DNA of 64,000 nt, from positions 1,547 to 65,546 of the forward strand of contig CAIYES010000233.1 in the NCBI GenBank assembly GCA_903925275.1, written 5' to 3'. The notes below the pieces were generated by a model. It saw nothing but the letters and a program-made list of their open reading frames with translations, had not been told where the DNA came from and made no database searches. The number at the start of each line of letters is the position of its first letter. The first letter of the stretch is position 1. Origin of the DNA: an uncultured Bacteroidales bacterium (GTDB lineage Bacteria > Bacteroidota > Bacteroidia > Bacteroidales > FEN-979). This document shows, piece after piece, positions 5,980-36,172 of this stretch. A program made the translations under genes and the position numbers.

Positions 5980-6129
5980 TTTCTTTCCATAATCTTTTCA
6001 CCTGCCGGGATCATTATCCGGGTATGGGTTATACCCACGCCTTACCCCTTCCTATTTGAAGGATTGGCAGGGAGTGGGTACATTAAAGACTGACATTCAC
6101 AAATTATTCAACAATAAATTTATAAACCC

Positions 6130-8271
6130 ATGAAATCACTTTATATAATTTCTTTTCTTTTATTATTCAGCATTTTCTCTGCCATGGCTCAGGATAAGCA
6201 GGGATCATCCCCGGCAGTGCGTGATACCACGGCCATAAAATATCTCAATGAAGTTGTTGTTTCCGCTTTAAGGATCAATATTCCCCTGAGGGAAATTCCG
6301 GCAGCCATATCGGTGGTTACCCCAAGGCAATTAAATACGATGACAAAAACCATCGCAGCCGATGATGCTTTAAGGCTTGTTCCTGGTGTCAGGATTGACA
6401 ATGGAACCGGCGGATCCCGGGTTCATGTGTACATCCGCGGCCAGGGTGTTTTAACCGAAAGCGGATTCAGGGGAGTCGGGGTGTATATCGATGGTATTTC
6501 CATCAACAACCCTGGTGGCTTTGCCCCCGATTTATATGATGTTGACTGGGAAACCGTAAAAAATGTGGAAGTTGTTAAAGGACTTGCTGCTTCTTTGTAT
6601 GGCGCAAGTGCAACCGGCGGAATCATAAACATCACAACCAAAGATGGTGGTGATAAACCTGTTAACAGTTCATTGTATACCGCTGCCGGTTCACACGGCT
6701 TCTGGAAAATTCTGGGGCAGGTTGACGGTACACAAAAAAATGTGAACTACCGGGTTTCATATTCCCATATGCAAAGCCATGGTTATCGCATACACCAGTC
6801 CTATATGTCAGACAATTTAAGCGAAAAGCTCACCTGGACACCATCCGCTAAATTAACCGTTACCCAATTGCTTACCTATACGAGCTATTTTAATCAGAAC
6901 TCCGAAGGAATTAATTTAGGCCGTTACGATACCGTTGGCCATACGGCAGCCAATACCGATGCAATCCGTTACAATGAGTTTCATAAAACCCAACGGCTCA
7001 CCGGTGCTACCAGCGTAAAATACGATTTTGCCAAAAACCAGGACATCACGGTCAAAGGGTTTATGCGGTTCAATAACTACAGGGAAACCTCCAACAATGG
7101 CGATGATTACAAACCATACGTCAACCCCGGCATTTCAGCACAGTATAATCTTCACTTTGGCAAGGAAAACCTATATAATCACCTCAGCCTGGGGGTGGAT
7201 TATCAATCGATGACGATGAATGAACACATGTTTGCCGTACCTGTCTGGAAGGATTTTAATAACAACCGGATCGACAGCTACTGGAGTGAAGAATCTTTTG
7301 ACACCCAGACAGTGCTGATAAACCAGGTCATTCGCCAGCGGAGTACGGGGGTGTTTTTGATCGACAAACTTGATATTGCCAAAAAGCTCTTTGCCATCCT
7401 CAATGTCCGTTATGACTACGTGTATAACAAGCTGGATTCCTCGACAGTGAGTGACAGTAAAGTTTTTCAAAAGCCCACTTTCCGGATCGGTTTAGCCTAT
7501 GATATGGCCAAGGCTGCCAATATCTATGCAAGTTATGGTTCCGGGTTTTTAGTCCCGACAGAAGATGAACTGTACAACAACCCGGTAAAATACGGCGGGT
7601 TTAATTCGCTTATTAAACCAACCAACTCGATGGGTGGTGAAATTGGTGTTCGCGGCGAGATCGGCAAGATGTTTTATTATGATGTTACCGGTTTTCTCAT
7701 CAATTCCAAAGATGAATTCTACCGTTACAGTGTTCCGGGAAGAGGCAACAATACGGCATTCTTTGGCAATATGGGACAGAGCAAAAGATGGGGTGTAGAG
7801 ACATTTTTGTCTTTTTCGCCGGTTGATTTCCTTAAATTCGATGTTGCCTATTCCTATTCAAATTTCCGGTATACCTCACCTGACAGCACCGCCGGGCACT
7901 GGATTCCTCAAAGCCCTGAACATATGCTCACGGCTGAAGCCTCTGTAAAGTTCCTGAAACATTTTACCCTGACGTTGAATGCCCAGTACCAGTCGAAATG
8001 GTGCATCCAGGTCGACGACTCTATTTATTTCCAATACCATGAAAACGGGCAAATCCGCAGTTCCTGGGTGAATGGATTCAAGCTATTCAATGCCAACCTC
8101 AATTATGCATGGAAACTGGGTTCACTGAAAGGCGACATCGGTGTATTTGCCAAGAATTTCCTTGACGAGCAATATTTCGGGTTCACAGAGCCCAACAACG
8201 GACCGGATTATAACAGCTATCAGGCTGCTCCAGGCAGGGAGTTCTTTGTAAGCCTGCGGCTCAGGTTGTAG
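6130..8271 (+). CDS. TonB-dependent receptor
   Basis: Signal peptide. Plug-domain motifs (NEVVVSA, DALRLVPGV, IRGQG, VEVVKGLAASLYGASATGGIINITTK). Long beta-barrel region. Confidence 0.85.
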   Translation: MKSLYIISFLLLFSIFSAMAQDKQGSSPAVRDTTAIKYLNEVVVSALRINIPLREIPAAISVVTPRQLNTMTKTIAADDALRLVPGVRIDNGTGGSRVHVYIRGQGVLTESGFRGVGVYIDGISINNPGGFAPDLYDVDWETVKNVEVVKGLAASLYGASATGGIINITTKDGGDKPVNSSLYTAAGSHGFWKILGQVDGTQKNVNYRVSYSHMQSHGYRIHQSYMSDNLSEKLTWTPSAKLTVTQLLTYTSYFNQNSEGINLGRYDTVGHTAANTDAIRYNEFHKTQRLTGATSVKYDFAKNQDITVKGFMRFNNYRETSNNGDDYKPYVNPGISAQYNLHFGKENLYNHLSLGVDYQSMTMNEHMFAVPVWKDFNNNRIDSYWSEESFDTQTVLINQVIRQRSTGVFLIDKLDIAKKLFAILNVRYDYVYNKLDSSTVSDSKVFQKPTFRIGLAYDMAKAANIYASYGSGFLVPTEDELYNNPVKYGGFNSLIKPTNSMGGEIGVRGEIGKMFYYDVTGFLINSKDEFYRYSVPGRGNNTAFFGNMGQSKRWGVETFLSFSPVDFLKFDVAYSYSNFRYTSPDSTAGHWIPQSPEHMLTAEASVKFLKHFTLTLNAQYQSKWCIQVDDSIYFQYHENGQIRSSWVNGFKLFNANLNYAWKLGSLKGDIGVFAKNFLDEQYFGFTEPNNGPDYNSYQAAPGREFFVSLRLRL

Positions 8272-8302
8272 AATGCTGTCAGCATGTGGATTAACCCAAA
8301 TG

Positions 8303-8350
8303 CCCCCACCCCTTCCCATCTCCTTGAAGGGGAGGGGCCAGGGGAGAGGT
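8303..8350. repeat. Degenerate member of a GC-rich palindromic (REP-like) element family
   Basis: CCCCACCCCTTCCCATCTCCTTGAAGGGGAGGGGCCAGGGGAGAGG forms an imperfect hairpin between convergent gene ends. It is related to the elements at 51575 and 58267. Confidence 0.5.
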
Positions 8351-8456
8351 CATAAATAATTAAACGCTCTGACAGGTTTATTTACGGTAAAAACATGATT
8401 TGTTACGTCTGAATGACTTTGCATGCTACCGGCTTCAGCCCTGGGAATGAGGTATT

Positions 8457-9008
8457 TCAATCCTTTCCGTGCGCCTTTTCAAACTTAGCTTTGGCCTTAT
8501 AGATAAACAGCGCTCTGAGTTTATCCCAGAAATCTCCTCCAAGCACAAACAGGCTTGCAATGAAAACGAGATCCGAGAAAACGACGATGATGTAACGTGC
8601 CTGTATTGAGATCGGAAGCAGGTGGGGCATTAATGAGATCATATAGTTGGGAAGGAAAGGGAGCATAAATAAAACCAGTCCGATATTGTACCGCAAAGGC
8701 GTAATATGGTGTGGTTTGGCCACCTTGAAAAAAATATAGCGCATCTTGTAGTTTATCCAGGCATACGAAGGTTTGCCCAGAATGGCCACACTTACGATTT
8801 TCATCAGGGGTGCACTGATCCAGAAAATCCCCAGCACAAAGTCTTTCATGAACTGACTCTTCACAAATTCTTTCAGTACCAAACCGGTCGGCAACATGAA
8901 AAAGGAGATGATGAAAATCACAAGTCCAACATAAAACCGGATGCCGGGGTTTTCAGGCCTCTTTATGTCCGATGCCGGTGGACGATGGAAAAACAGTGGT
9001 ACGCTCAT
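8457..9008 (-). CDS. Hypothetical multi-pass membrane protein
   Basis: Several hydrophobic segments, no recognisable motif. Confidence 0.45.
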   Translation of the reverse strand: MSVPLFFHRPPASDIKRPENPGIRFYVGLVIFIISFFMLPTGLVLKEFVKSQFMKDFVLGIFWISAPLMKIVSVAILGKPSYAWINYKMRYIFFKVAKPHHITPLRYNIGLVLFMLPFLPNYMISLMPHLLPISIQARYIIVVFSDLVFIASLFVLGGDFWDKLRALFIYKAKAKFEKAHGKD

Positions 9009-16204: not shown

Positions 16205-16837
16205 ATGCCGAAAAACAAATTCTACGTCGTGTGGCAAGGTAAGATCCGCGGCATTTACGACAGTTGGGCCGACTGCAAAAAGCAGGTTGACGGTTTCGAT
16301 GGTGCCTTATACAAGGGATTTCCAACCCTCGACCTGGCAAAAAATGCGCTGAATGACGATCCGCGCAGGTATATGTCGAAGGGGCTGCATGTTCCTAAAA
16401 AGATTGTTTGTTCCAATCCGCTGATCGGTGAACCTGTTTCCGACAGTATTTGTGTAGATGCCGCATGTGCCGGAAACCCGGGCATCCTCGAGTACCGTGG
16501 TGTGGATACCAAATCGGGTGCTGAACTCTTTCGCATGGGACCTTTCCCCGAAGGAACCGTGAACCTTGGAGAATTTCTCGGCATCGTTCATGCCCTTGCC
16601 TACCTGAAACAACGCAACAGCGACTGGCCGGTATATTCCGATTCACGAACTGCCATCGCCTGGGTTCGCAAAAAGGCTATCAACACGAACCTTGCTGTTT
16701 CGCCGAAAAACGAAAAACTGTTCGCCCTTGTGAGCCGCGCCATTACCTGGATTAACGAGAACCAATGGCCAAACAAAATATTAAAATGGGAAACGGAATT
16801 CTGGGGGGAGATCCCGGCAGATTTCGGAAGAAAATGA
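16205..16837 (+). CDS. rnhA: Ribonuclease H1 with N-terminal hybrid-binding (viroplasmin-like) domain
   Basis: KFYVVWQGKIRGIYDSWADCKKQVDGFDGALYKGF matches the RNase H1 N-terminal domain. An RNase H catalytic region follows (VDAACAGNPG...EY...VYSDS). Start moved to ATG 16205; the upstream MHCLHCLHCLH is translated repeat. Confidence 0.8.
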   Translation: MPKNKFYVVWQGKIRGIYDSWADCKKQVDGFDGALYKGFPTLDLAKNALNDDPRRYMSKGLHVPKKIVCSNPLIGEPVSDSICVDAACAGNPGILEYRGVDTKSGAELFRMGPFPEGTVNLGEFLGIVHALAYLKQRNSDWPVYSDSRTAIAWVRKKAINTNLAVSPKNEKLFALVSRAITWINENQWPNKILKWETEFWGEIPADFGRK

Positions 16838-20498: not shown

Positions 20499-22550
20499 AT
20501 GAGCGACAAACCTGTTTATAAACGGTATACCGTTACATCCGCCCTGCCCTACGCCAACGGGCCAATCCATATCGGTCATCTTGCCGGTGTTTATATCCCT
20601 GCCGACATATATGTCCGTTTCCTTCGGATGAACGACGAGGATGTCATCTTTATCGGTGGTTCCGACGAGCACGGCGTGCCCATCACCATCAAGGCACTGC
20701 AGCAAGGAGTTACCCCCCAGGATATTGTGGACAGATATCATGGCATCATCAAAAAATCATTCGCCGATTTTGGAATTTCCTTTGACATTTATTCCCGTAC
20801 CTCCAATAAAACCCATCATGAGACAGCTTCTGCATTCTTTCGCAAGTTGTATGATGCAGGAAAATTCATCGAAAAGGTTTCGGAACAATATTTCGACGAA
20901 GCCACGGGCCAATTCCTCGCCGACCGTTACATTACCGGAACATGCCCCTTCTGCGGTTTTGACAACGCCTACGGCGACCAATGCGAAAAGTGCGGCACCT
21001 CGCTTAATGCAACTGACCTGATTGAACCAAAATCAGTACTCAGTGGCAATAAACCGGTTTTGCGTGAAACACGACACTGGTTTCTCCCGCTTGATCAATA
21101 TGAACCCTGGTTGCGTGAATGGATCCTCGAAGGTCACAAAGATGACTGGAAAACCAATGTTTACGGGCAATGTAAATCATGGATCGATCAGGGACTTCAG
21201 CCGCGCGCCGTTACCCGCGACCTCGACTGGGGTGTGAAAGTTCCCGTGGAAGGTGCCGAAGGAAAAGTGTTGTATGTTTGGTTTGATGCACCCATCGGAT
21301 ATATTTCGGCAACCAAAGAACTGACTCCGGAATGGGAAAAATACTGGAAGGATCCGGAAACCAAGCTCGTTCATTTTATTGGCAAAGACAACATCGTTTT
21401 TCACTGCATCATCTTTCCGGCGATGCTGAAAGCCGAAGGTACCTATATACTTCCTGATAATGTTCCTGCCAATGAGTTCCTGAATCTTGAAGGTGACAAA
21501 ATATCCACCTCCCGGAACTGGGCAGTATGGTTGCATGAATACCTGGAGGCATTTCCGGGTAAACAGGATGTTCTAAGATATGTACTCACATCTGCCGCCC
21601 CCGAAACCAAGGATAACGACTTCACCTGGAAAGATTTTCAAACAAGGAACAACAGTGAACTTGTTGCAATTCTCGGAAATTTTGTGAACCGTACCATTGT
21701 TTTAACACACAAATATTTCGAAGGAAAAGTTCCTGAAACTTCTGCATTCACCGACTATGATAAAACGGCGTTGGAAGAGATGAGGCAATTTCCCGGCCGC
21801 ATTGCCGGTAGCATCCGGAACTACCGTTTCCGTGAAGCATTGGCAGAACTGATGAACCTGGCCCGTCTGGGGAACAAGTACCTCACCGACAATGAGCCTT
21901 GGAAGGTTTTCCCCACCGACCCTGTCAGGGTTGGAACAGTTTTAAACATCTCCTTGCAGATCTGTGCCCAGCTCTCGATCGTTGCCGAGCCTTTTCTCCC
22001 ATTTTCGGCTGCAAAGATCAGGCAGATTCTCAACCTGCCATCCTACAAATGGGGGGAGGCCATGTTGCTCAACTGGCTTTCAGCAGGTCACCGGTTAAAC
22101 CAGCCTGAACTACTCTTTGAGAAAATCGATGATGGCGCCATTGAAGCCCAGGTACAAAAGCTGTTGAGTACCCGCGAAGCCAATGAAGCCTTGCAAGCCA
22201 AAGCGCCCGTGAAGCCCGGCAAGGAGGCGATCGTATTCGAGGACTTCTCTAAAATGGATATTCGTGTGGGAACCATCATGGAGGCAGAGAAGGTAGCTAA
22301 AACCGATAAGTTGCTGAAATTGAAAATTGACACCGGTCTCGATCAGCGCATCGTGGTTTCCGGAATCGCAAAGTTTTTTAGTCCCGAAGAAATCGTTGGA
22401 AAACGCGTTTGCATCCTGGTAAATCTTGCCCCCCGCAAACTCAAAGGTATCGAATCGCAGGGTATGATCCTTATGGCCGAAAACCCTGATGGAACACTGT
22501 TTTTTGTAACCCCCGGTGAAGGATCCATCAATGGGGCGGATGTTAAATAG
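20499..22550 (+). CDS. metG: Methionine--tRNA ligase with C-terminal tRNA-binding (EMAP-like) domain
   Basis: [14 protein letters not shown] (HIGH motif), zinc knuckle CPFCG...CEKCG, KISTSRN (KMSKS variant), and a C-terminal MDIRVGTI...[12 protein letters not shown] domain. Confidence 0.97.
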
Positions 22551-22553
22551 TTT

Positions 22554-22594
22554 CCAAACCTTCCAGGTTTTAAAAACCCGGAAGATTTGGTTTT
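22554..22594 (+). terminator. Candidate intrinsic terminator of metG
   Basis: CCAAACCTTCCAGG / CCCGGAAGATTTGG forms a 14-bp stem with 2 mismatches, followed by TTTT. Confidence 0.5.
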
Positions 22595-22623
22595 AAAAAA
22601 TAGTTTAATTTTGCGCCACTCCC

Positions 22624-22695
22624 GGCCCCGTAGTTCAATGGATAGAACGGAAGTTTCCTAAACTTTAAATGCAGGTTCGATTCCTGCCGGGGCTA
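22624..22695 (+). tRNA. tRNA-Arg: tRNA-Arg (anticodon CCT)
   Basis: Manual cloverleaf: acceptor GGCCCCG/CGGGGCT, D arm GTTC-AATGGATA-GAAC, anticodon arm GAAGT-TTCCTAA-ACTTT, T arm GCAGG-TTCGATT-CCTGC, discriminator A. No encoded CCA. Confidence 0.9.
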
Positions 22696-22711
22696 CCTGA
22701 TCATCATACAG

Positions 22712-22746
22712 AAGGCTGATAATCAACAAGATGTCAGCCTTTTTTC
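22712..22746 (+). terminator. Candidate intrinsic terminator after the tRNA
   Basis: AAGGCTGA...TCAGCCTT stem followed by a T-run. Confidence 0.55.
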
Positions 22747-22778
22747 TTGTTGGGTACAACATAGGTACAACTAATTAC

Positions 22779-23139
22779 GGATCAAGAGGAAAATCTGGGG
22801 GATTACATTTGAAATTGAAATCTACTTGGTGAAATGAAACTGAAAAATCACTGCAATCTCAGAACCCCATAGGGGTGATATCTTTGTAGCAGGAGAAAAA
22901 TGAACCATTTCCAGAGCCCCATCGGGGCGACATAGTTGTTGAATCTGTAGAAGCTTAGCTATTGAGTTTATCAAACAGCAGGAAGAATAACCTATTTCGC
23001 AGCTACGCTGCTTTGTTATTCACGACCTGTTATTAGTACTACAAAGATTAGGCAGCTATGCTGCCAATTGGGGAGCAAGGGCAAAACCTCCGGATTTTTC
23101 GCTTGAACCTACCTTCCCCCCAGATTTATCTCTTGATCC
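22779..23139 (+). mobile_element. 361-bp non-autonomous TIR element (MITE-like), copy 1, with 8-bp target-site duplication
   Basis: Ends are GGATCAAGAGGAAAATCTGGGGG... and ...CCCCCCAGATTTATCTCTTGATCC (imperfect inverted repeat). It is flanked by CTAATTAC at 22771-22778 and 23140-23147. No ORF. A second copy lies at 43819. Confidence 0.8.
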
Positions 23140-23373
23140 CTAATTACAACTATCTGAATATTAGTTTATTACAAATAAGGATTTTCGGATAAACTACGTA
23201 ATATATTGATATAATGCATGTTGGTCATTTTATGCTTGAATTCCTAATCCCAGGCATTATTTATTAACGGGCTGTTCATAACTGACCTGCTCTGACAATA
23301 ACAGTTTCTCCAAGCATTTAGTTTCGCAGGGAATTCCCTACTTTTACTGTTGATTTACTAACCAACTAAGCGA

Positions 23374-24972
23374 ATGCCTACACTCAACTGGATCGGCAAA
23401 GACAAAGTCATCAACCACCATCAGGATGTACCCTTCCGTATACTCGACCATCAGTACGGTTTTACACCGGATGGCAAACAAGAAGCACCTGTTAACAGCG
23501 GTAATCTCATCATCCACGGTGATAATCTCGAAGCGCTTAAAGCCCTGTTGCCTCAGTACGAAGCGAAGGTTAAGTGCATCTATATTGACCCCCCTTATAA
23601 CACAGGTAATGAGGGTTGGGCATATAACGATAACGTTAACGATCCAAAGATTAAAAAGTGGTTGCACAAGGTTGTAGGCAAGGAGGGTGAGGACCTGAGC
23701 AGACATGATAAGTGGTTGTGCATGATGTATCCGAGAATGGTGCTTCTGCACAAGCTGCTTAGTCCTGATGGTGCAATGTTCATCTCAATAGACGATAATG
23801 AACAGCCAAACTTACGCTTATTGCTTGATGAACTATTTGGTGGTAAGAACTTCATTGCTAACGTTATATGGCAGAAGGTGTATTCTCCTAAGAACTCTGC
23901 GAAATACTTTTCTGAGGATCATGACTATATCATGGTTTACTCTAAAGACTTCACAAAGTGGGTGCCTAACATGATTCCACGTTCTGCAATACAAGTAAGC
24001 CGATATAAGAACCCAGATCATGATTCAAGAGGGCCTTGGAAACCTGGTGATCTGTCTGCAAGAAACTACTATGGAGATGGTACATACTCTATAACAACAC
24101 CTTCAGGGAGAACTATTGACGCACCTCCAAAAGGTATGTATTGGCGTGTCTCCTTTAAAAAGTTTCAAGAGATGGATGCTGATGGGCGAATTTGGTGGGG
24201 TGCAGAAGGAAATAATGTTCCTGCCATTAAAAGGTTCTTATCGGAGGTCCAAGATGGTGTGGTGCCTCAAACATTGTGGCGCTATGAGGAGGTTGGGCAT
24301 ACGCAGGATGCCAAAAAGGAGTTGCTTAAGATACTTGATTTCGACTCCTCAGCAGATGTCTTTATCACACCTAAGCCATCATCCTTGGTTGATCGAATCC
24401 TTCAGATAGGATCAAGCAAAGATTCAATCGTTCTTGATTCATTCGCCGGCTCAGGTACAACAGCTCATGCGGTCCTGAAACTAAACAAGAAGGACAAGGG
24501 TAATCGCAAATGTATCCTCGTAGAGATGGAAGACTACGCAGAAACCATCACCGCAGAACGCGTCAAGCGCGTCATCAATGGATACGCTGACGTTGAAGGA
24601 ACCGGTGGCAGCTTTGATTACTACGAGTTAGGGCCTCCGTTGTTTGATGAGAACGGCAACCTGAATGATCAGGTACCATTGAACAGGATCAGAGAGTATG
24701 TATGGTACTCCGAAACCCGGTCAGCATTTAATCCGTTGACGGAGGATCAGCTTCGCAATCCTTACTTCCTGGGGATCAAGGAGGATACCGGGTATTATTT
24801 CTACTACGAACTTCAGCAGGTAACCACCCTCGATTACGATTTTCTTGGTACCATCTGCCTCAAAGCAGAACAGTATGTAATCTATGCCGACAACTGCCTG
24901 CTGTCAAAGACCTTCCTGCAAAACAACAACATCATATTCAAGAAGATACCCCGAGACATCTCACGCTTATGA
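23374..24972 (+). CDS. mod: Type III restriction-modification methyltransferase (Mod), beta-class amino-MTase
   Basis: IYIDPPYNTG (motif IV) precedes DSFAGSGTTAHAV (motif I). Size and a downstream Res-type helicase-nuclease support the call. Confidence 0.85.
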   Translation: MPTLNWIGKDKVINHHQDVPFRILDHQYGFTPDGKQEAPVNSGNLIIHGDNLEALKALLPQYEAKVKCIYIDPPYNTGNEGWAYNDNVNDPKIKKWLHKVVGKEGEDLSRHDKWLCMMYPRMVLLHKLLSPDGAMFISIDDNEQPNLRLLLDELFGGKNFIANVIWQKVYSPKNSAKYFSEDHDYIMVYSKDFTKWVPNMIPRSAIQVSRYKNPDHDSRGPWKPGDLSARNYYGDGTYSITTPSGRTIDAPPKGMYWRVSFKKFQEMDADGRIWWGAEGNNVPAIKRFLSEVQDGVVPQTLWRYEEVGHTQDAKKELLKILDFDSSADVFITPKPSSLVDRILQIGSSKDSIVLDSFAGSGTTAHAVLKLNKKDKGNRKCILVEMEDYAETITAERVKRVINGYADVEGTGGSFDYYELGPPLFDENGNLNDQVPLNRIREYVWYSETRSAFNPLTEDQLRNPYFLGIKEDTGYYFYYELQQVTTLDYDFLGTICLKAEQYVIYADNCLLSKTFLQNNNIIFKKIPRDISRL

Positions 24973-25094
24973 AACCAAATGGAAAATACACTGTGGCAAT
25001 AAACGCATTATATGGGAATTGAACTATTCAAAATTGTCGAATGGATCAAGGTTTAATCATTTTTTTCTATCTTGCATAAACAAAAATAACCGAT

Positions 25095-25307
25095 ATGAAA
25101 ACCGATGAATTAATACTCGAAATAAAAAAACTGCCATTGAATGAAAAGCTTAAGATTATTGAAACTACAGCTCATTCGGTCAGGCTTGACGGAGAAAGAA
25201 AACAAAGGGCTGCCGCTGCAAAATCCCGTGCCGGGAATTATGCAACAGATCAGGAATTAACAGCGTTTACCACTTTAGACGGAGCGGCCTTTTATGAAAC
25301 AAGGTGA
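25095..25307 (+). CDS. Putative antitoxin of the downstream MazF-like toxin
   Basis: 70-aa ORF overlapping the toxin gene by 14 nt. The N-terminal helix (ELILEIKKLPLNEKLKIIE) resembles small addiction-module antitoxins; the family is not firmly recognised. Confidence 0.55.
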   Translation: MKTDELILEIKKLPLNEKLKIIETTAHSVRLDGERKQRAAAAKSRAGNYATDQELTAFTTLDGAAFYETR

Positions 25308-25653
25308 AATATGGCTTATCAGTCTTGATCCGGTGGTAGGCGCAGAGATCAACAAGACAAGAACCGCAATTATTATCAATGATGATGCGTTGGGAATTCT
25401 TCCACTGAAGATAATCATCCCGGTTACAGAATGGAAAACCAGGTATGTCAATGCTCCCTGGTTTGTAAAAATCGACTCTTCTGAAAATACCGGATTAACC
25501 AAAGATTCTGCTGCTGATTGTTTTCAAATCCGCTCGGCATTTGATTCACGGCTGATAAAAAAACTGGGAAAAGTAGACCAGGCGTCATTAGAAAAAATTC
25601 AGTATGCATTATCGAAAGTCCTGTCAATACATTTATTCGAAAAATTCGAATAG
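25294..25653 (+). CDS. mazF: PemK/MazF-family type II toxin (endoribonuclease fold)
   Basis: MKQGEIWLISLDPVVGAEINKTRTAIIINDD...PLKIIIPVT...ADCFQIRS matches the PemK/MazF pattern. Confidence 0.8.
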   Translation: MKQGEIWLISLDPVVGAEINKTRTAIIINDDALGILPLKIIIPVTEWKTRYVNAPWFVKIDSSENTGLTKDSAADCFQIRSAFDSRLIKKLGKVDQASLEKIQYALSKVLSIHLFEKFE

Positions 25654-25712
25654 CTCCCATGATCAATTCTTCGTAAAAGAAATCAAGCGCAAATCCCGGG
25701 CACCCGTAAACA

Positions 25713-28340
25713 ATGGAACTCAAACCCTACCAGACCAAAGTCATCAAAGACCTTGAAAGCTATCTTGGCTACGTTCAACAGTACAAGCTTACCGACGTAG
25801 CCTTTAAGCGCTTTTGGGAAGATCAGGTCGGTCCTTACAACCCGATCACCGGTGAAGGTATGTGACCGTATCAGAACAATGTTCCAAATGCGGCGCATGT
25901 TTGTATTAAGGTACCGACAGCAGGTGGTAAGACCTTCATCGCCTGTAACGCATTGAAGACGATCTTTAACGCATTTGATGCCAGCCATGCAAAAGCAGTG
26001 GTGTGGTTAGTACCCTGGAGCAACCTGTTAGAACAAACGGTTCGGAACCTGAGCAACCCTGATCATCCTTACCGGCAGAAGCTGAACACACTATTTAACC
26101 ATCGTGTGGCCGTTTATGAGAAGAAGGACCTGTTACAGGGATCAAACTTTAGTCCATCAGTGGTTAGTGAACAATTGAGCATCTTCGTGATGAGCTTTGG
26201 CTCGATCAGAGCGACGCGCAAGGAAGACCGTAAGATATATGAGCAAAACGGTCAACTGTCATCGTTTGTGCCCACTTATAATGATAGCTCCGTGGTACTG
26301 GCCAACACCGATGAGTCGGCGCTGATCAATGTAATCCGGAACCTGAACCCGATACTGGTCGTTGACGAAAGTCACAATGCTGAAACAGACCTCAGCGTGG
26401 AGATGCTGAAAGCGCTCAATCCATGCTTCATTCTTGATCTTACAGCCACTCCTAAAGACAACAGCAACATTGTCAGCATGGTTCCGGCTATTGAGTTGAA
26501 AAAACACAGCATGGTAAAGCTGCCTGTGATCGTTTATAACCATAAAGATAAACATGATGTTATCAGTAGCGCTCTTCACTTGCAGCGGAAACTGGAAGCA
26601 TCAGCACTTGCAGAAGAGAAGGTCACAGGCCGCTACATCCGCCCAATCGTCCTGTTTCAGGCACAATCAGCGACCCATGAAGACAACACGACCTTTGAGA
26701 AGCTAAAAGCCGAACTGCTAAAGCTTGGCATCAAGGAAGAGCAGATCAAAATTAAAACGGCAAACAAGAACGAACTTACCGGCATTGATCTGTCGTCAAA
26801 AGACTGTCAGGTAAGGTACATCATCACGATTAATGCACTGAAAGAAGGCTGGGACTGTCCGTTCGCATATATCCTGGCTTCACTTGCTGACAAGTCATCA
26901 GCAGTTGACGTTGAACAGATTCTTGGACGTGTGCTAAGACAGCCCTACGTTATCCGACATGCCGATATATTACTGAATGTTTCGTATGTACTCACGTCAT
27001 CCGCAAAGTTCAATGATACCTTGCAGAACATCGTCAAGAGCTTGTTGAATTCCGGATTTAGCGATAAAGACTACCGGCAGAAGGATGATATGCCCGAAGC
27101 CGACAAACAGCAGGTCACAGCAAAGACACTCGATAATTTCCTGTTTCCGGAAGACAAGCCGGAGGATGAAGGTATTGATGCCGGGAAGGTCAACTATAGT
27201 CCTGATGGTACAGATGCACCGGCAGCAACTACGGTTATCAACACCATCGCCGGTCTTGCCGAACAACAGAACCGTGAACTGGAAGAGCAGATCAACAAAC
27301 AACCTGATGTTATTGACGACAACTATTTTGCAGAGATGGGAACTAAAGTAAAGCGTTATCGAATCCGTGAAGCCTTGTTGGATCAAGTCAAGAGTATCAC
27401 CATTCCACGGTTCTACATTGATGTACCACACAGCGATCTCTTTGAAACCAGTTCAGGACTTGTCCCATTAGATGACACCATTCTGCTTACTGGATTCGCC
27501 CTGGAGAAGTGCGACAAGAATATCGCCTTTGATGATGTCTCGTCTGAACTTTACAAGGTTGACTTACAGGAAACACGGAAGAATGAGTACTCGCCCTCGT
27601 TTACCAAGATCGAAGACCGGATGCTTAAAGAGCCGTTAGTCGATTACATTCTCGCCAAACCAAAGGAGAGCCAGCTCAAAGACCTCGCTGATATAGTGAT
27701 CAAGCTCATAGGAGACATGTACCCAATTCCTGACAGCTCCATAAAACGCTATGTTGAATCAGTTTTTAACGACTTCACGCAAGAGCAGATCGCTGATTTT
27801 CTCGCTCGTAAATACACTTACGTCGACAAGATCAAACATAAGATCAAGGTACTTGCAGATGCATACGCCGAAGAACAATTCAATAAGTACATTAAGGTGG
27901 GGAAGATCAAGGTTCAGCAAGTGTGGAAGTTTCCTGAATCAATCAGTCCTGGCAACCTCGGCCCATCTATCGGACAATCGCTATATGAGCGTGAAGGGTC
28001 CATGAATGGCTTTGAAGAGCGTGTGATACTTGAATTGTCAAGCCTCTCTAACATAAACTTCTGGCACCGGAATATTGAGCGCAGGGGCTTTGCTATCAAC
28101 GGTTTTAAGTCAAACCATTATCCTGACTTCATTCTCTATACAAAGACCGGTAACGTAATTCTACTGGAAACAAAAGGTGATTATCTGGATGGAACTGACA
28201 GTTCTGCTAAGTGTCGTCTCGGGAACCAGTGGCAGCAGCTCTCCGGTTCAGGATTCAGTTACTTTATGGTGTTTGATGCCAAACCCATTACCGATTCTTA
28301 TACGATCACGCAGGCAAAGGATATGATCAGGATGCTTTAA
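25713..28340 (+). pseudogene. res: Type III restriction enzyme Res subunit (SF2 helicase + PD-(D/E)xK nuclease) interrupted by an in-frame TGA at 25863-25865
   Basis: The same frame gives MELKPYQ...GEGM-stop-PYQNNVPNAAHVCIKVPTAGGKTF (Walker A), then VVDESHN (motif II) and a C-terminal YPDFILY...LLETKG nuclease motif. The track ORF starts at TTG 25953, downstream of motif I. Confidence 0.75.
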
Positions 28341-28877
28341 CCCGGTTTTTCTCCACAAAAAACCCACTTACTTACCTGTATACCCTATAGGTGTAAAGTA
28401 AGTGAGCAGGTTTCTTCTTAATCGAGACTACCAGCATACATTGCCCCTAAAACGGGGCCACCTCCAATTCGACATTGTAAACGTCATTCTCAAGCCTTGG
28501 CACGTCCACCGCTGCAAGTGATTGTGTCATTTAATGTTGTGATTTGTTTGAGCCAATTGCCTTTGGGATCAAAACCCTGATAGATCCAAAGTCAAAAAGA
28601 GATGTCTCAGGGTATTGGTATAGCAAGACAAACAGTACAGAATGCGGAATATGGTGGGAATATAAACTTACTTACCCTCTTCAAAATAATCGATGTTCAT
28701 GACATGGCATTAGAGGAATTTTTCAGAGAAATGGAATAACATCATGATTACGGGTTTCCTCAATGGTTATCAGCCTGAAAAACAATTATATAGGTCTTTG
28801 CCTGTAGAATTAAATACGTATTAACCTGCAATGACTATAGTTGACATGATCAAGCGATCTTCAACAGGTAAGATCAG

Positions 28878-29672
28878 TTAATTGATCAGGATCATTTTCT
28901 TCATTTCTGATGTGGCTGATCCTGAATTAATTTGGTACAGGTATGTTCCTGCCGGTAAATCGGTATTGTCGATATTTATATGACCGGTTTGCCCCACTAC
29001 GTTTACAGATTTTCTCATATTACCCTTCAAATCGTAGAATATAATCTGACCTTGTGTTTCTCCCGGTAGCAACTGGTACTCGATTGTTGCATTACCTTTA
29101 TTTGGATTTGGGTAAACATTGATTATGCATCGTCCAGAGTTTGACGATTGAATGTCAGATTGCCCATATGGCAAATGCCCCGGCAGACTATATATTTCAC
29201 TTATTGATTTTCCTGTTGCAACTAACGTTTCTGACATTATCATCTTAGTCCCTGCAGCGGTATTAAATATACCCCCATAATATGCATGATTTGCTGAATC
29301 ACCTCTTGAGAATAAAACCGAACCATCCTCTTTATAAACCAATACTTTGGTATTATAAAAATCCGCAACCATATATTCGATTGATGCATCCAAATCGAAC
29401 AGTTTATCAGAAACATTGAAAATCCAATAATTATGATTCGGTTGGACCGGAACTATAATTGTTTTAAATGATGTATAATCAAGGTTATACAGGTAAAATA
29501 TATTGCTGTCTGCAATTGGTATAAACCATTTATCTCCACCATTTTCAAAATGAATTATGGTCGGAAATGCTTGATAGTTGTTTGCAGGATAGGTGTGTTC
29601 CAATACAATTTGCGCATCCAGCATAAAATGCGTTGACAGGAAAATCATTGTAATGAGAATCGATTTTTTCAT
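28878..29672 (-). CDS. Secreted protein with T9SS C-terminal sorting domain
   Basis: Signal peptide, C-terminal NVYPNPNKGNATIEYQL...GTYLYQI...KKMILIN. Confidence 0.65.
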   Translation of the reverse strand: MKKSILITMIFLSTHFMLDAQIVLEHTYPANNYQAFPTIIHFENGGDKWFIPIADSNIFYLYNLDYTSFKTIIVPVQPNHNYWIFNVSDKLFDLDASIEYMVADFYNTKVLVYKEDGSVLFSRGDSANHAYYGGIFNTAAGTKMIMSETLVATGKSISEIYSLPGHLPYGQSDIQSSNSGRCIINVYPNPNKGNATIEYQLLPGETQGQIIFYDLKGNMRKSVNVVGQTGHINIDNTDLPAGTYLYQINSGSATSEMKKMILIN

Positions 29673-35473: not shown

Positions 35474-36172
35474 GTGAAAAGAAAGGTTATATATGTCGAG
35501 GATGAACCCTTCCTGGGTAAAATTGTAAAGGAGACCCTTGAGAACCAACATTTTGAAGTTCTTTGGAAAACCACCGGGATCAGCATACTCAAAGAGATCA
35601 GGGAATTTTCCCCGGAAATCTGTGTTCTCGACATTATGCTGCCTGATGTTGACGGATATGTGTTGTGCCGTCAGATTAAACACACATTTCCCTCCCTGCC
35701 GGTCATTTTTCTGACAGCTAAAACCGAAACAGCCGACCTGGTGAAGGGGTTCGAAGCAGGCGGAACCGATTACATGCGGAAACCATTCAGCATTGAGGAG
35801 CTGATCGTGCGGATCCACAACCAGTTCCAGCTGATGGAAGGGAAGAACCAGGGAGGAGGAGGTATCGGCGAAGAAATTGTATTGGGGCAGTATCTCTTTA
35901 TCCCCGGCCGGTGCGAACTGCTTTCACCCTCACGAACCATCAAACTGTCATTACGTGATATGCAGGTCATGTCGATGCTTGCCGGTAACACCAACCGTGT
36001 GGTTGACCGCAAAACCATGCTGATCTCCATTTGGGGCGACGACTCCTTTTTTAATTCGAGAACGCTGGATGTCTACATCAGGAAACTACGCAACTATTTT
36101 TCGGAAGACCGCGGAATAGAGATCGTGACCATGAAAGGCAAGGGTTACCTGTTCCTGGTGAAGGAGAAATGA
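35474..36172 (+). CDS. OmpR/PhoB-family response regulator
   Basis: Receiver domain (VIYVEDE...LDIMLPDVDG...LTAK) plus a winged-helix C-terminus (LRKLRNYF...VTMKGKGY). GTG start. Confidence 0.85.
   Translation: MKRKVIYVEDEPFLGKIVKETLENQHFEVLWKTTGISILKEIREFSPEICVLDIMLPDVDGYVLCRQIKHTFPSLPVIFLTAKTETADLVKGFEAGGTDYMRKPFSIEELIVRIHNQFQLMEGKNQGGGGIGEEIVLGQYLFIPGRCELLSPSRTIKLSLRDMQVMSMLAGNTNRVVDRKTMLISIWGDDSFFNSRTLDVYIRKLRNYFSEDRGIEIVTMKGKGYLFLVKEK

Follow-up and report, generated by a model that had tools for sequence, protein, structure and literature searches.

The window, the 64,000-nucleotide stretch of DNA from an uncultured Bacteroidales bacterium that we analysed as a whole, carries a restriction-modification (R-M) locus on its + strand in which mod lies upstream of res, the two being separated by a 740-bp insert (24973-25712). 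The mod gene (23374..24972, + strand) encodes an intact, 532-aa Type III methyltransferase that matches Pfam N6_N4_Mtase (4e-40) and, over residues 1-531, the PADLOC MTase_III profile (5.8e-221). In its product, motif IV (DPPY, aa 72, 23587-23598) precedes motif I of the FxGxG type (FAGSGTT, aa 357, 24442-24462), and the variable target-recognition region (TRD), as judged by comparison with relatives, is central (aa ~121-352, 23734-24429), which is the arrangement of Type III Mod proteins. The product of res, when read across the interruption described below, has the ResIII domain and the superfamily 2 (SF2) helicase motifs I, II, III and VI of a Type III Res subunit. The hallmark of Type III systems is ATP-dependent cleavage at two inversely oriented unmethylated sites, with Mod hemimethylating its target. 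The locus is thus a Type III system by descent, and it is incomplete, as an uninterrupted res is lacking: a TGA occupies codon 51, and no start codon downstream of it preserves motif I.

A tRNA-Arg(CCT) gene (22624..22697, + strand; ARAGORN, and Rfam tRNA at 70 bits) separates the R-M locus from metG (20499-22550). Over the tRNA, a related locus, L007, shows 98.7% identity, and it likewise has metG upstream and R-M genes downstream, so that at least two lineages have the R-M locus next to a tRNA gene. The genes 3′ of res are on the opposite strand, and on a contig with the same res allele they include genes with Por_Secre_tail and CarboxypepD_reg domains, flanking genes of the T9SS-tail and TonB types that point to a Bacteroidota host; as no gene follows res on its own strand, the interruption is expected to have no polar effect on other genes. 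A sigma-70 promoter and terminator scan, using a model that is not one of Bacteroidota promoters, found fewer promoter-like sites in the locus than in shuffled sequences. The search for phase-variation repeats with TRF over 22700-28400 returned only a weak repeat of 6 nt × 3.3 at 23624-23643 (score 33); homopolymer and tetranucleotide tracts were absent. Because mod is devoid of a simple-sequence repeat tract, the label of phasevarion, which we had considered, does not apply.

The insert between mod and res contains two ORFs on the + strand. The downstream ORF (25294..25653) encodes a 119-aa toxin of the PemK/MazF family (Pfam PemK_toxin, 1.2e-21; NCBIfam MazF, 2.3e-08). It overlaps by 14 nt with a 70-aa ORF (25095..25307) that matched nothing in Pfam, NCBIfam or PADLOC, is also present in the sister locus L006 (see below), and is a putative antitoxin by virtue of its position. 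The two ORFs, which lie inside the R-M operon and are shared with L006, probably constitute a type II toxin-antitoxin pair whose antitoxin is of an undescribed kind. Insertions between mod and res recur in this Type III family, as seen in a collection of ~75 loci. In about half of them mod and res are 0-5 bp apart, and the remainder have same-strand inserts of 0.5-2.9 kb that encode RhuM (13 loci), Fic with a 23S_rRNA_IVP protein, AAA_21 with DUF4276, Uma2, Bro-N, YhcG/DUF1016 or KilA-N; the insert shared by the window and L006 is that of MazF with the 70-aa ORF.

Translation of 25713-28340 yields 876 codons, of which codon 51 is the sole internal stop and the last is TAA. The ATG at 25713, the TGA at 25863-25865 and a TTG at 25953 all share one frame, and beyond codon 51 the gene has no other stop, frameshift or sign of decay in its 875 codons. 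Joined across the TGA, the product is 875 aa, which equals the length of its orthologues. The 5′ fragment (25713..25862, + strand; codons 1-50) includes the LKPYQ sequence (25719-25733) and is identical or nearly identical to the N-termini of the orthologues. The remainder (25866..28340, + strand; codons 52-875 and the TAA) encodes the Walker A sequence PTAGGKT (motif I; aa 68-74, 25914-25934), DESH (motif II; 26358-26378), TATP (motif III; 26439-26453) and QxxGRxxR (motif VI; 26916-26942). The PADLOC REase_III profile matches the intact sister Res protein P0129 with an E value of 2.1e-71. A PD...ExK-like motif (YPDF...LLETKGD, aa 803-823, 28119-28181) was recognized by eye in a segment that profile and structure matches do not cover; the comparison of Res with solved structure chains, including EcoP15I, gave no sequence match at E≤1.

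The Pfam ResIII match on the joined protein extends over residues 1-248 (profile positions 2-163 of 164, E 4.9e-16). As this match begins at residue 1 and spans the stop, the 50 codons that precede the TGA are part of the helicase domain. Each of the 120 best homologues listed covers 100% of the joined query, and all are 872-885 aa in length. The stop therefore sits within a conserved domain of an otherwise complete gene. Sixteen codons separate it from Walker A, and a codon scan of this interval detected no ATG, GTG or TTG, the sole near-cognate start being an ATT at codon 65 (25905). The first canonical in-frame start past the stop is the TTG at codon 81 (25953..25955, + strand), which is located 3′ of motif I and would give rise to a 795-aa product devoid of that motif. 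The initial annotation had already described the position and frame of the TGA, its distance from Walker A and the loss of motif I from a protein initiated at the TTG, and the translation and motif coordinates bear out all of these statements.

The residue that formerly occupied codon 51 could be deduced from the orthologues. In all seven of the closest ones (81-93% identity) the residue is Arg, whereas Gln, Arg or Glu is found in more distant orthologues. At the DNA level the codon is CGA in L001, L003, L006, L007 and L031, and CGC in L002. Neither a stop codon nor Cys, Trp or Gly was found in this column among the orthologues aligned, and the column is uninterrupted in all 120 listed homologues and in all of the ~75 genome loci. 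Since the close orthologues uniformly have Arg, encoded by CGA or CGC, the lesion is a single C-to-T transition that converted CGA to TGA (R51*). Of the three residues (Trp, Arg or Gly) that the initial annotation had thought an alignment might reveal, the answer is thus Arg.

A single-base difference from every orthologue, in what is apparently a metagenome-derived contig, raises the question of whether the true base at 25863 is C and the TGA is a sequencing or assembly error. The exact 50-aa truncated product was called on six contigs from at least four assemblies (ENA ERZ1426704, ERZ1426828 and ERZ18640064, and the Logan assembly of ERR4194093). Two of the six contigs, L004 and L005, were compared at the DNA level; over stretches of 721 and 817 nt that include the TGA, their sequence matches the window at 100% identity. 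The Res piece called 3′ of the TGA, 795 aa long on four TGA-bearing contigs and 716 aa on one, has the same sequence as in the window. Given that the same stop was recovered in at least four separate assemblies generated by different pipelines, a base-call or assembly error is very unlikely. The metagenome scan for either allele returned a single contig, L006, which has CGA; a CGA variant of the same strain was not found in that scan. The initial annotation had reasoned that a sister genome with a sense codon at 25863 would expose an assembly error. L006 does have a sense codon there, but it represents a different strain (94.7% nucleotide identity in res), and the assemblies of the same strain have the TGA, which is what would be expected of a real mutation.

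The contig L006 (SESA01001598.1) is syntenic with the window, with 96.5% nucleotide identity over 8.5 kb and the same gene order (mod, the 70-aa ORF, MazF and res), and it thereby provides the related strain with which the initial annotation had suggested that the locus be compared. Its res is intact, with 875 aa and CGA at codon 51. When the differences between the two res genes were polarised with three outgroups, 35 synonymous and 7 missense changes, in addition to the nonsense mutation, were assigned to the window branch, and 36 synonymous and 12 missense changes to the L006 branch. The neutral expectation is roughly three missense changes per synonymous change. The small number of missense changes argues that the window branch was under purifying selection for nearly its whole length. 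The pairwise dN/dS for the two genes is 0.06, as compared with 0.03-0.05 among intact orthologues. The intact CGA allele in the sister strain, together with a window branch that still bears the mark of purifying selection, points to a recent origin of the stop, as does the fact that the TGA-bearing contigs do not differ in their downstream Res sequence, from which we infer that the allele belongs to a recent and essentially clonal lineage. The recency of the stop would in turn account for the lack of decay in the rest of res.

One could envision that the TGA does not abolish Res synthesis. An in-frame TGA, taken by itself, might signal programmed recoding, with either insertion of selenocysteine or a variant code that reads TGA as sense. 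The genome uses the standard code, however, as TGA ends 11 of the 37 ORFs of at least 200 codons in the window, among which are those at 16835-16837 and 36170-36172 that the initial annotation had cited as genuine stops. The TGA at 16835 was itself considered as a possible interruption of a second gene; this was ruled out because the same-frame ORFs on either side are two unrelated genes, one encoding an RNase H-like protein and the other a lipoprotein that starts at an ATG of its own and has a signal peptide. An Rfam search of 22000-29000 at E≤1 identified the tRNA only and no SECIS element, and no tRNA-Sec or suppressor tRNA was detected in the window. The fold of 25850-25960, downstream of the stop, is no better than that of shuffled sequences (z −1.36). 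The orthologues have Arg, Gln or Glu, and not Cys, Sec, Trp or Gly, in the column; conserved recoding of UGA fails for this reason and for the absence of a downstream element. Selenocysteine insertion or a variant code is thus refuted as far as sequence analysis goes.

Alternatively, the stop might simply be leaky. The base that follows the TGA is C, and UGA followed by C is reportedly the weakest termination context in E. coli (Poole, Brown and Tate 1995, cited in PMC9841425), so near-cognate decoding (by tRNA-Trp, for example) could yield a little full-length Res in which residue 51 is substituted and, hence, attenuated restriction. The variability of column 51 among homologues (R, Q or E) suggests that such a product might work, and the lack of any other lesion in 875 codons, with a dN/dS on the window branch as low as that of intact genes, is what residual function would predict. 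This low dN/dS, on the other hand, is fully explained by recency, the TGA-bearing contigs sharing an identical res. Basal read-through of a stop codon usually amounts to about one percent or less, and neither a stimulatory structure nor a known recoding element accompanies the TGA, which is confined to one essentially clonal lineage while the orthologues have an ordinary Arg codon. We consider appreciable read-through unlikely. A further scenario, also raised by the initial annotation, is that Res is made in two pieces, with the active enzyme assembled from the 50-aa N-terminal peptide and a C-terminal protein whose translation starts downstream. Both pieces are ORFs and are called separately by gene callers. 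With no ATG, GTG or TTG ahead of Walker A, neither piece would include motif I unless translation began at the ATT of codon 65; moreover, the stop parts the N-terminal LKPYQ element from motif I inside one domain, and the 120 best homologues listed are all single chains of ~875 aa. A split enzyme is therefore highly improbable.

Hence, among the three readings put forward in the initial annotation, the one that fits the CGA sister and the absence of a rescuing start is that res has recently been inactivated and is now a pseudogene, next to a mod that is intact and not phase-variable, while the two-piece enzyme and read-through fared poorly. We assign the pseudogene reading a probability of roughly 0.85. 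In Type III enzymes, DNA cutting requires ATP hydrolysis by way of the helicase motifs of Res, and methylation by Mod is independent of Res. From this established behavior we infer both a loss of restriction and continued methylation in the window lineage. According to the proposed sequence of events, the C-to-T change at codon 51 (CGA, Arg, to TGA) would cause translation from the ATG at 25713 to terminate after 50 residues. Any restart, at the TTG at 25953 or at an ATG at 26190, would produce a protein that lacks helicase motif I and is predicted to be incapable of ATP hydrolysis, and such a protein would be unable to cut DNA. The intact Mod would keep methylating, and the locus would most likely function as a solitary methyltransferase with an adjoining MazF-type toxin module. 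The lack of decay beyond one codon would be equally expected if read-through had preserved some function. The presence of the allele in several assemblies indicates that it is not strongly deleterious, and its persistence could in principle reflect selection.

The comparison of the window with L006 uncovered a second difference at the locus, in mod. The TRDs of the two Mod proteins (aa 121-352) are only 33% identical, in contrast to the 96-97% identity of the flanks, and against six relatives the identity of the window TRD is 23% for the L003 allele and 31-39% for the others, with flanks at 81-97%. Four TRD alleles are present in the seven loci: one in L006, L001 and L007, another in L031 and L002, a third in L003, and a fourth in the window alone. 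This distribution departs from the res phylogeny, which argues for frequent exchange of the TRD. As the L006 allele is shared, at 89-91% identity, with the more distant L001 and L007, the exchange probably took place on the window's branch, which is also the branch of the nonsense mutation. One interpretation is that the two events are linked, and that the loss of Res allowed a new methylation specificity to be adopted without self-restriction. L001 and L031, however, have different TRD alleles and Res proteins that are 98% identical and both intact, so the exchange does not need a lasting knockout of res. The combination of a TRD change and a res nonsense mutation is a single co-occurrence, and a causal link has a low probability; we regard it as quite unlikely. 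Were it true, the locus would be a natural snapshot of a safe change of Type III specificity and, if UGA-C leaks as well, an attenuated enzyme would have been left in place during the change-over.

Among the ~75 complete loci of GTDB species representatives, only L062, in a Chlorobiota MAG (6001-8606), has a broken res, with a frameshift near aa 61-98 that may be real decay or a sequencing error. In the metagenome contig FUWD013028090.1 (L087, 874-3502), res is spread over four frames, perhaps through decay, perhaps through poor sequence quality. A 26,393-bp contig from ERZ1426827 has metG (683 aa), then ~450 bp, a 66-aa res relic (P0128) and unrelated genes; a 55-aa core of the relic is identical to aa 402-456 of the window Res. 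There, at the same chromosomal site, the R-M locus seems to have undergone a near-complete deletion, possibly as a later stage of loss.

An inactivated res beside an intact mod is an already known kind of event in Type III systems. In Haemophilus and Neisseria, inactivating res mutations next to an intact, phase-variable mod are documented (Fox et al. 2007, PMC1976455). The modA loci of Haemophilus influenzae and Neisseria resemble the window locus in being mod-res operons in which a point lesion truncates Res and Mod is intact, and in having a central Mod recognition region that is hypervariable among close relatives while res is conserved. They differ from it in the nature of the lesion, which is a frameshift or deletion that removes the C-terminal nuclease rather than a nonsense mutation near the N-terminus, and in the phase variability of mod, the window mod having no simple-sequence repeat tract; their hosts are host-adapted pathogens, unlike the uncultured environmental Bacteroidota of the window. 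With the prototype Type III enzymes EcoP1I and EcoP15I the locus shares the order of the two genes, with mod 5′ of res, a β-class N6/N4 methyltransferase as Mod, and a Res that belongs to the SF2 helicase-like ATPases and has a putative PD-ExK-like motif in its C-terminal part. It differs from these systems in its Res, which has no sequence match to the EcoP15I structure at E≤1, and in the toxin-antitoxin pair that separates mod from res. As a mutation, it is like the ordinary CGA-to-TGA pseudogenes of bacteria, with one transition, a gene that is otherwise intact and a sister strain with the intact allele, and without any notable difference from them.

The locus illustrates that a nonsense mutation can be told apart from an assembly error in metagenomic data without recourse to reads, by means of independent assemblies and the allele of a sister strain. 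In annotation, the gene should be recorded as a res pseudogene (R51*) and not as a 795-aa protein initiated at the TTG at 25953. The host would accordingly be scored as the bearer of a solitary Type III methyltransferase rather than of an active restriction system, a distinction that bears on predictions of phage and plasmid uptake and on the reading of methylomes in this Bacteroidota lineage.
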